Below are positions 5,126-54,426 of a DNA stretch of 64,000 bases, piece by piece. Source of the stretch: Candidatus Blackburnbacteria bacterium (GTDB taxonomy: Bacteria > Patescibacteriota > Microgenomatia > UBA8517 > UBA10165). Position numbers and translations under genes: made by a program. Within the stretch, counting starts at the first letter, position 1. Each line of letters starts with the position of its first letter. The notes below the pieces were generated by a model. The model did not search any database and was not told where the DNA came from. It was given only the letters and a program-made list of their open reading frames with translations. The DNA is taken from assembly GCA_016183565.1 (NCBI GenBank), contig JACPEJ010000004.1, forward strand, positions 41,178 through 105,177. Reading direction: 5' to 3'.

Positions 5126-7386
5126 GAGATTTTAGCTTTTTTCAGAAGCAAAGAATTCGCCACCACAGATGTTGACGAAAAGGCCATTGCTACTGAGGCA
5201 AGAATTGGGCTTAATAAAATTCTAAAAATTGGGTAAAGAGCCCCCATGGCAACAGGTATGAGTATAACATTATACCCGAAAGCCCAAAAAAGATTAGATT
5301 TAATTGTTTTCATTGTTTTTTTAGAAAGCTTTATTGCTCCTACTACTGATCTTAAATCTTTATTAATAAGTGTAATATCTGCAGCCTCTATGGCAACATC
5401 TGTGCCAGTTCCCATTGCGATGCCAACATCAGCAGCAGCTAATGCTGGTGCATCGTTAATACCATCCCCTACCATCGCAACAACCTTTCCTTCAGATTGT
5501 ATCTTTCTTACTTCAGCTTCTTTTTGATCCGGTAATACTTCCGCTAGGACTCTTTTTATTCCAACTTCTTTTGCAATAGCCGTGGCAGTTCTTTTATTAT
5601 CTCCCGTAATCATAGCAACCTCGATATCTAATTTTTCAAGGGCTTTAACTCCTTCTTTTGCAGAATCTTTCAGTGTGTCAGCAACTGCTATCAATCCTAC
5701 AACTTTTCCTTTAAGTGCTAGGATCATAACAGTCTTTCCTTCACTTTCCAGCCTTGCAAGGGGACGCCTTGCAGGGCTAGTGTCGACTTTTTCTTTCTCC
5801 ATTAACCGGGTGTTCCCCAGTAGCACGCAATCCCCATGTACTTTGCCTTCTACGCCGTGCCCAGGTATGGCCCTAAACCCTTCGACTTTACTCAGAACAA
5901 GATTCTCTTCCTCAGCTTTAGTAACAATTGCTTCGGCAAGGGAATGTTCGGAGCCTTTTTCGATAGATGCTGCTAACTGTAGGATAGTTTGTAGGTTGTA
6001 GGTTGTAGGTTGTAGGGGCATTACATCTGTCACCTTCGGCTTTCCTTGTGTCAAAGTTCCGGTTTTGTCAAAAATAATTGTCTTAACTTTATGGGCTGTT
6101 TCTAAACTTTCCGCGTCTTTTATTAAAATTCCCTGTTCAGCACCTTTTCCAGTGCCAACCATAATAGCAGTAGGAGTCGCAAGACCCATTGCACAAGGAC
6201 AGGCGATAATAAGAACCGCAACTGTGTTCAGAAGTGCAAATAAAAGTGCAGGTTGAGGGCCAAAGTCATACCAAAGCACAAACGTGGTAGTTGCGAGTAT
6301 TATCACTACTGGTACAAAGTAGGAAGAAATAAGGTCAACTAGTTTTTGAATAGGAGCTTTGCTTGCTTGAGCTTCTTCAACAAGTCTTATGATTTGCGAA
6401 AGCATGGTTTCCATCCCCACTTTAGTGGCTTTATATGTAAATGTTCCGGTTTTATTTATAGTTCCTCCGATAACTGTATCCCCTTTTAACTTGTCGACAG
6501 GAATACTTTCCCCTGTAACCATTGATTCATCAATTGAGGACTCGCCATCTAAGATTGTTCCATCAACTGGTATTTTTTCGCCCGGTCTTACCCGAATAAT
6601 ATCACCAAGCTCAACTTCTCCTATTGGTACATCGACCTCAACTTTTCCCCTAAGAACTTTTGCTGTTTTGGCTTGGAGACCAATGAGTTTTCTTATTGCC
6701 TCTGAAGTGCCAGCGCGGGCTTTTGCTTCAAAATATCTACCTAAAAGAATTAGGGCGATAATTATGACCGGAACATCAAAATATGGCATAGGCTTAATTC
6801 CCAGTGCTTCGACTGTTTCGGGGAAAATAGTCACGAATACTGAGTAGCTGTAGGCCATTGTAGTACCAAGGCTCACTAGGGTGTCCATGTTTGCTGTGCG
6901 ATGTTTAAGAGCGGGGATTGCGGCTTTATAAAATTCCAGTCCAACCCAAAATTGGACTATTGAGGCAAGAACTAGTTGCACTAAAAAGTTTTTTAACACA
7001 GAGGGTGCAAAATCCATCAAAAATGGGAAGCTACCCCATAGAATCAAAACACCAGTAGCCAAAGCGAAAGCAACTTTTTTTCTAAGATTATCAAGCTCTT
7101 TCTTTTTTTGTTCTTTTTCTATTTCTGTGTCTTTTGCTGTTTTTTCCAAGAGCGCTTTGTACCCAACTTGAGAAACAGTAGTAATTATTTGCTCATCCGT
7201 GACTTTTTTGGGATCATAAGAAATATTCGCTTTTTCTGTTGCAAAATTTACCTGTGCTTCCCTCACCCCTTCTACTTTTTCCAAAGCACGTTCAATAACT
7301 CTTACGCAAGAAGCACAGTGCATACCTTTAATGAGAAAGGTTGTAGTGAGTAGGTTGTAGTTTTTAGGTTGTAGGTTGTAGGTCAT
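5122..7386 (-). CDS. copA: copper-translocating P1B-type ATPase
   Basis: N-terminal HMA GMHCASC; CPC motif ([19 protein letters not shown]); DKTGTLT phosphorylation site; [10 protein letters not shown] hinge. Confidence 0.9.
5750..5780. repeat. palindromic (ccttgcaagg)x2 element, copy inside copA
   Basis: agccttgcaaggggacgccttgcagggctag; encodes the in-frame insert LARLESEG in CopA. Confidence 0.7.
5989..6017. repeat. tandem heptamer repeat (ggttgta)x4 inside copA
   Basis: tgtaggttgtaggttgtaggttgtagg; translated in-frame as [13 protein letters not shown] in CopA. Confidence 0.7.
7339..7360. repeat. left 22-bp inverted repeat flanking the IVS-protein cassette
   Basis: ggttgtagtgagtaggttgtag; perfect reverse complement of 7752..7773. 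Confidence 0.75.
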
Positions 7387-7736
7387 TTCTGTAACACATT
7401 GATTAATTTATTAAGCATCTTCATTATTTCTTGAAGTAAATTATTTACACTATCGAATTCTACCTGACTGATGTAACCAATTTTCAATGCTATGAATAAC
7501 TGTGTTTCTAGCTCAGCACCAGAGCCAAACGATATCCTAAGAAATTGGATGTACTCTGCTTTATGTCCCCGTCTCTGACCCTCCGCAATATTCGAAGGAA
7601 TAGCAACAGTGCATCTTCTTATTTGAGAAATTAATCCATACAACTCATTCTTAGGAAAACTCTCTGTAATTCTATATGCAATAATGCATAGATCAATCGA
7701 TTTTTGCCATACTGTTAAATCTTTATAAGAATTCAT
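7383..7736 (-). CDS. four-helix-bundle protein (23S rRNA intervening-sequence protein family)
   Basis: 117 aa; family pattern [50 protein letters not shown]...[16 protein letters not shown]. Confidence 0.8.
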
Positions 7737-7751
7737 CCTCTCGCTCTTAAG

Positions 7752-7773
7752 CTACAACCTACTCACTACAACC
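7752..7773. repeat. right 22-bp inverted repeat flanking the IVS-protein cassette
   Basis: ctacaacctactcactacaacc. Confidence 0.75.
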
Positions 7774-7775
7774 TA

Positions 7776-52450: not shown

Positions 52451-52657
52451 TCAGTGTCCATTGACCACCTTTCTGATCTGGGCAAACCATCTGTCCAAAA
52501 TCCGGGGGCCGTGGATCGCGAACATAAATGTGTTCGCGATGGCCGTCAGCGAGAAAACTACAGCCGCCCCAAGCACAATCTCTGGCGGCATCCACGATCC
52601 GGTCACGATCAGCACTGCCAAGACTGCTCCGATCCCTAAGAGCACTAACGGTAGCAT
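52451..52657 (-). CDS. hypothetical small membrane protein in GC-rich island
   Basis: 68 aa with two TM helices; GC-rich. Confidence 0.3.
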   Translation of the reverse strand: MLPLVLLGIGAVLAVLIVTGSWMPPEIVLGAAVVFSLTAIANTFMFAIHGPRILDRWFAQIRKVVNGH

Positions 52658-52870
52658 CTCTCTCCTCTCCCTTGATATTTGATGTGCGAACTTCCAGGTT
52701 CCTCAAGAGCGAACTCTCGAGTCTGAAAGACATTTTCTAAGTGTGGGCATACTATATCACAGAAAGGACCAAAAATCAAGTATTATGGGATAAAAAGTAC
52801 CGTGGGGCTGATTTGACAACAATCTAAGACCTGACTCGGCTTTGAAGCTAGGTTATGGTAAAATACGTAT

Positions 52871-53461
52871 ATGATTCGGAAGATATTGCGTACAACTGAT
52901 CCCAAATTGAGAACAATCTCTAAGCCAGTTCAAAAAGTCGACAAGAAACTTCTAAAGCTCTTGCGTGATTTAGAGGATACAGTGAAGGCCCAAAAAGACC
53001 CGGAGGGTATTGGCCTTGCTGCACCCCAAATCGGTGAGTTCGTATGTGTGTTTGTAATTCGGGACAAACACCAAATCAAAACTTTCATAAACCCTGAAAT
53101 TGTAAAAAGTTCAAAAAAGACTAATGATCCCAAGAAAAAACCAGAAGAAGAAGAGTATTTTATGGAAGGTTGTCTCTCGCTTCCCCACTATTACGGGCCT
53201 GTTGAACGCGCTTTGTCTGTTACGGTAAAATACCAAGTTCCTCAACTACAACCTACAGCCTACGGTTCGACTGTCCTGAGCTCACCGTCGAAGGACAACC
53301 TACATACTTTACAAAAGACCTTCCGAGGTTTTATAGCCCAAGTAATACAACATGAGATTGACCATCTAAAGGGTAGGGTTTTTACAGAGCGCTTGATTGA
53401 GCAGAAACGAAAACTTTTTAAGCTTTACGGTGACCATTGGGATGAGGTTGAATTGCCATGA
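52871..53461 (+). CDS. def: peptide deformylase
   Basis: GIGLAAPQIG; EGCLS; QHEIDHLKG metal-binding motifs, with lineage-specific inserts. Confidence 0.8.
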   Translation: MIRKILRTTDPKLRTISKPVQKVDKKLLKLLRDLEDTVKAQKDPEGIGLAAPQIGEFVCVFVIRDKHQIKTFINPEIVKSSKKTNDPKKKPEEEEYFMEGCLSLPHYYGPVERALSVTVKYQVPQLQPTAYGSTVLSSPSKDNLHTLQKTFRGFIAQVIQHEIDHLKGRVFTERLIEQKRKLFKLYGDHWDEVELP

Positions 53462-54426
53462 ACAAGATTGTTTTCTTTGGGACTCCAGACTATGTTTTGC
53501 CCGTACTTGATACACTGAAAAACCACGGGTATGAAATTGCAGCAGTCGTAACTCAACCCCCGAAGCTAGTTGGTAGAAAACAAATACTGACTCCCTCCCC
53601 TGTTGCTCAGTGGGCAGAAAAACAAGGTATTCGGGTTATTGACGAGTCGCCAAAAAAGATTGTTAACACGCTGGAAGAACTAGATGCAGAAGTTGGAATC
53701 TTGGAAGCTTACGGTAGAATCTTGCCACTTGAAATCCTTAATGTTTTTCCCCAAGGCATAGTAAATGTCCATCCCTCACTTTTGCCAAGATGGCGAGGCG
53801 CATCTCCTATTGAGGCAACTATTGTAGCTGGAGATAAGGTAACAGGAGTTACAATAATAAGGCTTGATGAGGAAATCGATCACGGGCCTATGCTTACACA
53901 ATTTACTGAAGAAGTGAGATCAGATGATACCAAAATTACCTTGCGCTCAAGACTTTTCCGAAAAGCAGCAGATGAGCTGGTTCGAGCTTTGCCTCTTTAT
54001 CTAGAAGGAAAACTTGAGCTTAAAGAGCAAGATCATTCGAAGGTAACTTATACAACCCTAATTCAAAAAGATCATGGCTTTATCCCTCCACAATACATTG
54101 CATTAGCCTTGCAAGGGGACGCCTTGCAAGGCTATGAGCGGTATGAGTGGTTGATTCCGTTTGTCAAAAACTTCACCCTTCACCCTTCACCCTTCACCCT
54201 CGAACGTTTCATCCGCGCTCTTGATCCCTGGCCAGGAGCTTGGACGTTTGTTAAGCTAGGAAGCCATAATGCTATGAAGCAATCGCGCTTAAAACTACTC
54301 GTGGCTCACACAGAAAAAGGCTCCATAGCTCACCTTGCTCTTGACACTGTCCAGCACGAAGGCAAAAATCCAGTTTCTTGGAAACAGTTTAAGGAAGCTT
54401 ATCCTGAGGCGAGGTTTGAAAACTAA
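53458..54426 (+). CDS. fmt: methionyl-tRNA formyltransferase
   Basis: N-terminal formyltransferase domain (IVFFGTPDYVLPVLDTL ... HPSLLPRWRGASPIEATI); follows def in the classic def-fmt operon. Confidence 0.9.
   Translation: MNKIVFFGTPDYVLPVLDTLKNHGYEIAAVVTQPPKLVGRKQILTPSPVAQWAEKQGIRVIDESPKKIVNTLEELDAEVGILEAYGRILPLEILNVFPQGIVNVHPSLLPRWRGASPIEATIVAGDKVTGVTIIRLDEEIDHGPMLTQFTEEVRSDDTKITLRSRLFRKAADELVRALPLYLEGKLELKEQDHSKVTYTTLIQKDHGFIPPQYIALALQGDALQGYERYEWLIPFVKNFTLHPSPFTLERFIRALDPWPGAWTFVKLGSHNAMKQSRLKLLVAHTEKGSIAHLALDTVQHEGKNPVSWKQFKEAYPEARFEN
54105..54133. repeat. palindromic (ccttgcaagg)x2 element inside fmt
   Basis: agccttgcaaggggacgccttgcaaggct; encodes in-frame [11 protein letters not shown]. 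Confidence 0.7.
54171..54193. repeat. tandem heptamer (cttcacc)x3 inside fmt
   Basis: cttcacccttcacccttcaccc; encodes FTLHPSPFTL; same heptamer as in recR. Confidence 0.6.

Follow-up and report, generated by a model that had tools for sequence, protein, structure and literature searches.

Heptanucleotide repeats have been described as the most abundant class of long simple sequence repeats (SSRs) in many prokaryotes, at least as the survey of Mrazek (2007) is summarized in later papers, and the same summaries give, as a tentative cause of the preference for 7 nt, slippage governed by the footprint of the polymerase (PMC4692102, PMC4679880). Known representatives are GGGNATC of Xanthomonas and Nostoc, TAACTGA of Beggiatoaceae, cyanobacteria, and Bacteroidetes, and the cyanobacterial STRR (PMC4692102, PMC4679880). 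A counterpart within coding sequence is the variable-number tandem repeat (AAGACTC)n of neuO in the Escherichia coli K1 phage CUS-3, which varies from 3 to 53 copies between strains and acts as an ON/OFF switch in an accessory gene, the full protein being made only if the copy number is divisible by three (PMC13001214). Here, we analyzed a 64-kb window (the whole stretch of DNA under analysis) of Candidatus Blackburnbacteria, a member of the Microgenomates within the candidate phyla radiation (CPR), which is AT rich (~41% GC) and carries 27 tandem arrays of 7-nt units, both between genes and in frame inside housekeeping genes.

Like the known long SSRs, these arrays consist of 7-nt units in tandem, show a period-specific excess, comprise several unit families in one genome, are preferentially intergenic, often occur as inverted pairs, and often lie directly 5' of start codons, and the same slippage origin can be proposed for them. 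Unlike the known long SSRs, they occur in a CPR bacterium with a small genome instead of a large-genome cyanobacterium or proteobacterium, their units are different and mostly A-tract rich, the arrays are short (~4 units), and 13 of the 27 are in frame inside housekeeping genes, at sites common to distant orthologues. The STRR units CCCCAGT, TTGGTCA, and CAACAGT, reportedly described by Mazel in 1990, were matched by none of the 27 unit consensuses of the window. A cyanobacterial origin (STRR/HIP1) was rejected, the HIP1 octamer GCGATCGC having a count of 0 in the window and the relatives of the topoisomerase I gene (topA) being Microgenomates. The feature is a known class, heptanucleotide microsatellites, in a new lineage; a literature search found no report of heptamer repeats in CPR bacteria. 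As far as can be told, the aspect not described before is that loops of essential genes hold four-unit arrays whose position and length are the same in distant lineages, with units homogenized to lineage-specific variants.

Two other systems are said to come close, namely, the Rickettsia palindromic elements (RPEs), which Ogata reportedly found in frame in protein genes in 2000, and the small dispersed repeats (SDRs) of Nostoc, which Elhai reportedly found in 2008 to be embedded in heptamer arrays. As in these systems, loops of conserved proteins encoded in the window accommodate short repeats in frame; within a topA heptamer array lies a 42-nt palindromic insert, in the manner of the SDRs, and a 32-nt palindrome occurs in copA and fmt. 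The heptamer arrays differ from both in being nonpalindromic and without defined ends, and their homogenized, lineage-specific units at conserved sites point to microsatellite dynamics and not to insertion of a fixed element.

Excess of period-7 arrays in the window and in CPR loci

Tandem Repeats Finder (TRF) returned 70 rows in the window, 27 of them at period 7, compared with a mean of 1.6 (maximum, 6) period-7 rows in 40 Markov-4 shuffles. Exact arrays of at least 3 copies numbered seven at period 7 and zero at all other periods from 4 to 21 (Markov-3 expectation, 0.00), and exact period-7 arrays of at least 2.5 copies numbered 13, against 0.04 expected under Markov-3. The period-7 arrays are real, and their excess is statistically overwhelming. 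Periods 6 and 9 also exceed the Markov expectation, with 9 TRF rows each versus 0.4 and 1.9, respectively. The exact arrays of at least 3 copies start at the following positions:

5989, TTGTAGG
17241, CCCTTTT
39115, GAAAATT
39571, TTTTGAC
39872, GAATTTT
49609, AATTTTC
54171, CTTCACC

A run of A4 or T4 lies within 18 of the 27 units (13% expected). Pairs of arrays at unrelated loci that belong to the same unit class numbered 35, compared with an expectation of 0.46 (8.8 when the draw is limited to A-tract units), and ten unit classes were found just once in the window. With a coding fraction of 0.88, coding sequence contained 13 of the 27 arrays, and the other 14 occupied spacers or gene edges (intergenic or 5' untranslated region [UTR]), which corresponds to 1.9 arrays per kb of intergenic sequence versus 0.23 per kb of coding sequence, an ~8-fold difference. 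An AT-rich genome with many A-tract-rich units might invite a reading as chance low complexity or assembly artifact, to which we assign a negligible probability. This reading was refuted by the Markov-3 and Markov-4 shuffles, which yield essentially none of these arrays, by the in-gene arrays, all of which leave intact the reading frames of proteins that match Pfam and PDB entries strongly, and by equivalent arrays in independent assemblies from NCBI, ENA, JGI, and Logan.

The distribution beyond the window was assessed with 80 loci fetched around topA, TRF densities being taken from 41 CPR-like and 42 non-CPR loci. Period-7 TRF rows per 100 kb amounted to 16.6 in the CPR-like loci, 4.1 in the non-CPR loci, where periods 9 and 12 dominate, and 42 in the window itself. 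Exact period-7 arrays of at least 2.5 copies were present in many CPR loci of the 80-locus set (including L001, L003, L008, L010, L011, L019, L021, L025, and L072) and in one non-CPR locus only (L056). The greater richness of CPR-like loci indicates that the phenomenon belongs to the lineage and not to this contig. The exact topoisomerase I protein of the window was found on one 127-kb contig only, annotated as Candidatus Blackburnbacteria, with the next relative being 66% identical, and the genome relatives of the window are Woesebacteria, Shapirobacteria, and other Microgenomates.

The original prediction had named heptamer arrays inside unrelated housekeeping genes, expected an enrichment over composition, and noted that the same units recur in unrelated genes. 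All of its arrays are present, at or within a few bases of where it had placed them, and all of its gene names agree with Pfam and PDB searches; the placement inside unrelated housekeeping genes was borne out, the enrichment proved strong both in the exact scan and in TRF against Markov shuffles of the window, and the recurrence of unit families is reflected in the 35 same-class pairs. It had overlooked the 14 intergenic or 5'-UTR arrays and a third topA array at 39115-39135.

Heptamer arrays inside housekeeping genes

The in-gene arrays all lie where orthologues vary in length or sequence. Their coding-strand units are mostly A rich and give K/Q/S/N/E-rich peptides, which is what selection for tolerated surface loops would leave, and the arrays encode only ~1.3 peptide periods. 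The fullest record comes from topA, whose three arrays coincide with three variable loops in a 60-orthologue alignment:

38129-40198, topoisomerase I (topA) gene
39872-39902, minus strand, loop 1, perfect array of AAAATTC x4.4 on the coding strand, encoding SKFKIQNSKF
39571-39600, minus strand, loop 2, perfect array of GTCAAAA x4.3 (x4 plus AT) on the coding strand, encoding VKSQKSKVKN
39074-39135, minus strand, loop 3, AATTTTC array on the coding strand (21 nt plus CAATTTTCA), split by a 42-nt insert

Orthologous loci carry the following loop-2 arrays:

L091, GTCAAAA x4
L083 and L092, GTCAAAT x4
L002, L089, and L093, CTCAAAA x4 with one variant unit
L090, CTCAAAT x4
L094, mosaic of GTCAAAA-CTCAAAA-CTCAAAT-GTCAAAT
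L081, the window peptide, its repeat broken by three synonymous changes (a decayed copy)

Across the window and these orthologues, the loop-2 arrays keep the same position, the same 30-nt length, and four units, and one metagenome scan with a degenerate loop-2 pattern retrieved six loci, all with four units. The lineages concerned share 64 to 75% protein identity among themselves (surrounding 390 residues) and 61 to 62% with the window. All four combinations at the two variable unit positions occur as homogeneous arrays, and all four are found together in the mosaic of L094. The unit changes alter up to half of the residues (VKSQKSKVKN, VKCQMSNVKC, LKTQISKLKT, and LKSQISNLKS), while the 7-nt periodicity, the synonymous positions, and the length are kept. 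Judged from these aligned sequences, loop 2 is a case of concerted evolution at the DNA level under length constraint, which selection on the protein does not explain. The occurrence of arrays both in and between genes, together with the wholesale change of loop-2 units, likewise argues for a process acting on DNA and not on protein, and in-gene arrays at orthologous sites with lineage-specific units suggest turnover in place and not repeated insertion.

Loops 1 and 3 show AAAATTC-type-derived peptides (NSKFKIQNSKF) in many orthologues. In the window, loop 3 encodes KFSIFNF-PACYRLAAKQLAGR-QFS, a segment that is an insertion relative to the 60 orthologues, and the GC-rich palindromic 42-nt insert (39074-39115, minus strand, 14 codons, PACYRLAAKQLAGR) sits exactly within the AATTTTC array. 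The insert was considered as a dispersed element and rejected as such, having a single occurrence in the window.

The remaining in-gene arrays and their host genes are as follows:

5122-7386, copA-type P-type ATPase gene, with E1-E2 ATPase, HMA, and hydrolase domains; best PDB match, A. fulgidus CopA
5985-6016, minus strand, TAGGTTG x4.6 (coding CCTACAA; TTGTAGG x4 at 5989-6016) in copA, encoding PTTYNLQT after the DKTGT motif
12621-12640, minus strand, CGTTTTG x2.9, last codons of cysS
14727-15344, recR gene
14927-14958, minus strand, CCTTCAC x4.6 with 84% matches (coding GGTGAAG) in recR, encoding ERVKGEGERVKE
15842-17446, dnaX gene
17237-17263, minus strand, TTTTCCC x3.9 (coding GGAAAAG) in the zinc-module loop of dnaX, encoding GKGKREKGK
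29168-29188, minus strand, CTTTTTG x3.0, inside folD
50092-50121, plus strand, GGGAAAC x4.3 with 69% matches, in a Wzy_C/TPR membrane protein gene, after the FVSNM motif
51007-51038, plus strand, CAAAAAT x4.7 with 73% matches, in the same Wzy_C/TPR gene, encoding ILKIKNINQNLK
53458-54426, fmt gene
54171-54200, plus strand, perfect array of CTTCACC x4.3 in the interdomain linker of fmt, encoding FTLHPSPFTL
60458-60488, plus strand, ATTGAAA/ATTAAAA x4.4 with 83% matches, in an alpha/beta-hydrolase gene, encoding IENFKLKIKN

Comparison with orthologues and solved structures showed how much length these arrays add. With 15 residues versus a modal 8 in 120 orthologues, the dnaX array loop is longer by 7 residues (21 nt), and compared with E. 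coli it has 8 inserted residues; independent arrays occupy the same loop in other lineages (GCTAAAA/GTGAAAA x4.6 in L087 and GCGCAAA x4 in L088). The arrays of copA and recR coincide in part with short loops: the loop with the internal copA array is 3 residues longer than in A. fulgidus CopA, the recR array, which overlaps the conserved ERV..VKE segment, gives a 2-residue excess only (both by PDB alignment), and the fmt array lies within an ~30-residue insertion relative to solved Fmt structures, alongside the 32-nt palindromic repeat. At the first Wzy_C/TPR site, orthologues carry arrays with the same 25-residue spacing, AGTGATT x5 in L001 and a perfect AGCGTAT x4.7 in L003. Wzy_C is the only surface-related host of an in-gene array; the other hosts include topA, dnaX, recR, fmt, cysS, folD, and copA.

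With the window and the CPR loci taken together, 9 of 11 perfect arrays in open reading frames (ORFs) measure 28 to 35 nt, i.e., 4 to 5 units, a count that takes the topA loop-3 array as reconstituted across its 42-nt insert, while perfect intergenic arrays measure 17 to 50 nt. The lengths support a composition in which an in-gene array would typically be a seed plus three units. The prediction that in-gene copy numbers preserve the frame therefore stands, with modification, as far as these lengths and the 7 additional dnaX residues are concerned; however, no polymorphism of heptamer arrays by plus or minus 21 nt was found, and topoisomerase I lengths were invariant within 90% clusters (ten orthologue clusters) with one exception. 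This sole 7-residue length variant was set aside as a 21-nt-period duplication without 7-nt substructure. Two strains of another Microgenomates species (L085, 3301-3360; L086, 11231-11269), 99.5% identical over 6.1 kb, have as their sole indel a 21-nt tandem duplication (period 21, YPTASSA/YPTVSSV) in topoisomerase I.

These data bear on the possibility that the in-gene arrays are contingency loci, which by frequent slippage would switch genes ON/OFF or vary protein length on the model of neuO. The 13 arrays in coding sequence follow the same arithmetic as neuO (PMC13001214), being 7-nt tandem repeats whose frame is kept by steps of three. Unlike neuO, they have ~4 units in fixed number, lie in essential genes, and showed no variation, and the contingency reading is very improbable: the hosts are single-copy housekeeping genes (topA, dnaX, recR, fmt, cysS, and folD), the arrays are short (3 to 5 units), topoisomerase I lengths vary within the 90% clusters only by the one nonheptamer duplication, and every lineage recovered shows a loop-2 array of four units. 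Because the host genes are essential, a 7-nt slip would be a lethal frameshift and not a regulatory switch. The suggestion that slippage-prone units could give phase-variable length polymorphism in core proteins found no support, no 90% cluster of topA orthologues showing copy-number variation, and the comparison of copy numbers across relatives that had been proposed returned four units for topA loop 2, both in the window and in the five other distinct forms of the array recovered; this comparison drew on related lineages, not on this species.

Intergenic modules and stem-forming arrays

Between genes, two unit families behave differently. The first, AATTTTC, belongs in its intergenic copies to modules of 53 to 72 nt that are 60 to 94% identical at five loci (ybeY-dnaX, rpsB-tsf, mreC-ORF, upstream of mreB, and upstream of secE) and have the same orientation relative to the downstream gene at all five. 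The module layout is an AATTTTC array, the palindrome AATTTTCAATGAAAATT, and then a GAAAATT-type array abutting the ATG. The arrays of these modules and of related 5' positions, together with one marginal array, are as follows:

17454-17484, minus strand, AATTTTC x4.4, 8 nt upstream of the dnaX start, dispersed intergenic module
17539-17569, minus strand, ATTGAAA x4.4 (reverse complement of the AATTTTC family), distal end of the ybeY-dnaX spacer module
17965-17996, minus strand, GAAATCC x4.6 with 72% matches, directly upstream of the ybeY start codon
25684-25714, minus strand, AATTTTC x4.4, adjoining the tsf ATG in the module between rpsB and tsf, with 82% identity to the dnaX module
45638-45656, minus strand, AATTTTC x2.7, just 5' of the ATG of the ORF downstream of mreC
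45725-45754, minus strand, TAAAAAT x4.3, distal end of the mreC-ORF spacer module
49609-49632, minus strand, perfect array of AATTTTC x3.4, abutting the mreB ATG (sense strand, GAAAATTGAAAATTGAAAATT-ATG)
59685-59701, strand undefined, TTTTTGT x2.4, marginal array
62026-62089, plus strand, secE 5'-UTR module with AATTTTC array, palindrome AATTTTCAATGAAAATT, and ATTAAAA array
62289-62317, plus strand, AAAAGTT/AAAAGTC x4.1, abutting the nusG ATG, same family as the topA loop-2 unit

Arrays of the GAAAATT or AAAAGTT type directly adjoin a start codon in at least five cases (dnaX, tsf, mreB, nusG, and the ORF after mreC), and the nusG 5' array is 88% complementary to topA 39571-39603. No Shine-Dalgarno-like motif was visible upstream of the starts at 17446, 25683, 45629, 49608, 62105, 62317, 63070, and 63579, and A/T-rich heptamer arrays extend right up to the ATG at these starts. 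The long-ORF calls of tsf, mreB, and the ORF after mreC, which have TTG starts inside arrays, are probably overextended. Two readings of the AATTTTC modules were not retained. A consensus scan for promoters showed no excess, and a promoter-like site lies upstream of the secE module (61967-61996), which makes this module more likely a 5' UTR; RNA structure found weak support, the ybeY-dnaX module folding weakly and no better than shuffles (z = -1.7). Most simply, the AATTTTC modules are 5'-UTR elements.

The second family, AGGTTGT, forms arrays together with its reverse complement at two places. Intervening sequences (IVS) of 23S rRNA with a PF05635 (S23p/Avd-like) ORF in an RNase III stem are known from Leptospira and Coxiella, and a comparable cassette lies in the window, listed here with the arrays around rplK:

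7338-7383, minus strand, AGGTTGT-type array, 6.6 copies with 74% matches, downstream stem arm of the IVS cassette and first 15 copA codons
7387-7745, minus strand, gene for a PF05635 23S-rRNA-IVS/four-helix-bundle (Avd-like) protein (Pfam E = 3.6e-38)
7752-7787, minus strand, CTACAAC-type array (reverse complement of the AGGTTGT family), upstream stem arm of the IVS cassette
62317-63018, nusG
63021-63050, plus strand, AGGTTGT x4.3 between nusG and rplK, matching the copA internal array at 90% over 30 nt
63070-63498, rplK
63495-63569, plus strand, hairpin following the rplK stop, formed by an AGGTTGT-type array with its reverse complement (CTACAAC x4.4, 63539-63569)

As in the 23S rRNA IVS, the PF05635 ORF is bracketed by a long inverted repeat that is predicted to form a stem: the 44-nt arms are 77% complementary (96% over 26 nt), and the fold of 7325-7800 pairs both arrays in a predicted long-range stem around the IVS-protein gene (z = -4.6). 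Unlike those IVS, the cassette lies between a cupredoxin gene and copA, outside any rRNA gene (Rfam found no rRNA genes in the window, so that the cassette is not within 23S rRNA), its stem is built of heptamer arrays, and the downstream one doubles as coding sequence for the copA N terminus, the HMA domain beginning at residue 16, after the array-encoded part. A tblastn search against all fetched loci found no further copies of the cassette protein. An inverted match at 3037-3068 to the 5' end of the IVS-protein gene may be a second, degenerate cassette copy. The hairpin after rplK has a predicted energy of -29.8 kcal/mol (z = -5.4), with 0 of 200 shuffles folding as well.

Such structures raise the question of whether the arrays at large are selected cis-acting elements, e.g., RNase III-type processing stems, 5'-UTR modules for translation or stability, or arrays bound by a protein with 7 nt per subunit (for instance, one with a cold-shock domain). 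The strong predicted structures of the AGGTTGT arrays and their reverse complements agree with this idea, as do the start-codon-abutting arrays, which are placed like the TAACTGA repeats of Beggiatoaceae (PMC4679880), and the periodicity and synonymous sites of topA loop 2 that are conserved across lineages. However, the units differ so widely between arrays that no single binding specificity fits, the in-gene arrays have neither partner arrays nor a consistent strand, the AATTTTC modules fold no better than shuffles, and function would leave the array origin and the period of 7 unexplained. As a general account, cis-acting selection is accordingly improbable to us, whereas a cis-acting role is plausible for the stem-forming and start-codon-abutting intergenic subsets.

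The reuse of units suggests another alternative, namely, that ~30-nt cassettes (AATTTTC, AGGTTGT, CTTCACC, and AAAAGTC) are copied and pasted by mobility or ectopic template switching, including in frame, in a way similar to RPEs or the SDRs of Nostoc. Unit families are common to loci far above chance; the five AATTTTC modules are similar over their full 53 to 72 nt with fixed orientation to the downstream gene; and sequence or ends beyond the unit are shared in these modules and in the AGGTTGT arms. Moreover, the genome holds other small repeats in frame (the 32-nt palindrome in 7 copies and a 54-nt element in 3), and the 42-nt palindromic insert lies inside a topA AATTTTC array. Yet lineages differ in their units at orthologous sites while the length is identical, for which turnover in place is simpler than repeated precise replacement. 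In addition, neither target-site duplications nor the defined ends of an element turned up, ten unit classes are single in the window, and the window ORFs that were inspected included none noticed as transposase-like, though no systematic screen of the window for such a gene was made. Relative to orthologues the picture is mixed, the dnaX array being a 7-residue insertion and the topA loop-2 and Wzy_C arrays having the same length. We therefore consider copy-and-paste unlikely as the source of the arrays overall, but the reuse of unit families at unrelated loci, with shared phase and copy number, keeps it a live rival, at least for the intergenic modules. The claim of a propagating micro-repeat divides along the same line: the intergenic AATTTTC and AGGTTGT copies do resemble dispersed modules, whereas the in-gene arrays persist at orthologous sites with lineage-specific units.

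Proposed origin of the arrays and other repeats of the window

The best explanation, which we hold to be probable with moderate confidence, is that the arrays are heptanucleotide microsatellites that arise by slippage or copy choice, pass a reading-frame filter within genes, and undergo concerted evolution; ordinary slippage, constrained by frame, is the probable mechanism. DNA-level slippage or copy choice would generate the arrays and keep rehomogenizing them, and the process would be unusually active for 7-nt, mostly A-tract units in this Microgenomates lineage and in other CPR lineages. The A-tract bias of the units fits easy melting and realignment. Between genes, where the frame constraint is absent, any change in unit number would be allowed and arrays would accumulate to ~8 times their density in genes; some of them may have become parts of the repeated 5'-UTR modules abutting start codons, and some inverted arrays may have become RNA hairpin stems, as around the IVS-protein cassette and after rplK. 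Within genes, selection would eliminate all frame-shifting events and let two kinds survive. One would be a net gain of three units (21 nt, 7 codons), giving arrays of about four units in tolerant, hydrophilic surface loops. The other would be length neutral (a backward plus a forward slip, or conversion within the array), whereby a unit is overwritten by its neighbor, so that array length would stay constant and all units would drift together. Length-neutral replacement of this kind would lead to homogenized arrays of constant length. We infer both the underlying event, i.e., polymerase slippage or copy choice, and the reason for the period of 7.

Several observations weigh against this explanation. 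Mono- to tetranucleotide repeats are not enriched in the window, although a general repair defect would predict enrichment. No loop-2 allele of 1 or 7 units was found among 8 loci besides the window, and the three-unit step is therefore deduced from loop lengths; nor was a slippage event directly observed, the species being represented by a single contig in databases. Simple slippage leaves unexplained why 7 nt should be preferred over 5, 6, or 8, and also why unit families recur at unrelated loci. Finally, copies of one family share phase and copy number, which can equally be counted in favor of copy-and-paste: the recR and fmt arrays both have four CTTCACC units plus CT, and the copA internal array and the array upstream of rplK are 90% identical over 30 nt.

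A dedicated or lineage-specific process of CPR bacteria (of the Microgenomates type), which would write and maintain arrays of about four heptamers (~30 nt) at fixed sites, including loops of essential genes, is a rather unlikely alternative. Such a process would homogenize units with length unchanged, e.g., through templated conversion or an ectopic copy-choice system, and it might be common to the 32-nt and 42-nt palindromes and to the arrays bracketing the Avd-like cassette. If it existed, the arrays would be a maintained genomic feature and not passive microsatellites.

Heptanucleotide repeats have long stood out as an unexplained oddity of some bacterial genomes, and the present case extends them to the CPR. 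The topA loop amounts to a natural experiment, with the same loop and the same four-unit array in several lineages, each homogenized differently and one of them mosaic, and thereby documents concerted evolution inside essential genes with unusual clarity. The balance of slippage or conversion versus purifying selection is measurable from public metagenomes, as is the question of whether frame constraint turns microsatellite instability into length-neutral concerted evolution. In practical terms, the arrays inflate loop lengths and yield odd low-complexity peptides in conserved CPR proteins, as well as spurious database matches (TALE repeats in the case of fmt).

Apart from the heptamer arrays, the window contains the following dispersed and tandem repeats:

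5748-5779, 15424-15455, 29732-29763, 41033-41064, 42703-42734, 50514-50545, and 54103-54134, copies of the GC-rich 32-nt palindrome TTAGCCTTGCAAGGGGACGCCTTGCAAGGCTA
14061-14114, 43332-43385, and 50326-50379, copies of the partly palindromic 54-nt repeat ATCCCGATGTGCAAAGCTATTCCACTCCCGATGTGGAATACGTTGGCACATCGG
12764-12795, 37214-37246, and 12387-12414, tandem repeats of period 9 or 12
26606-26644 and 27985-28023, 39-nt direct repeat

Most of the seven copies of the 32-nt palindrome are inside coding sequence, including those in copA and fmt, and the fmt copy is the one that led to the spurious PDB matches to TALE repeats; the palindrome looks like a mini-element tolerated in frame, of RPE or SDR type. 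The three copies of the 54-nt repeat have 91 to 100% identity, and one lies inside the Wzy_C/TPR gene. The period-9 and period-12 repeats are in frame within genes (TGTACTACT x3.6 and AGACACAGGCAC x2.8), and the two copies of the 39-nt direct repeat, with 92% identity and 1.4 kb apart, flank the region after rpsB. Upstream of the secE-nusG-rplK region, four tRNA genes form a cluster at 55785-57037, three of them on the minus strand (Thr-GGT, Tyr-GTA, and Thr-TGT) and one on the plus strand (Trp-CCA).

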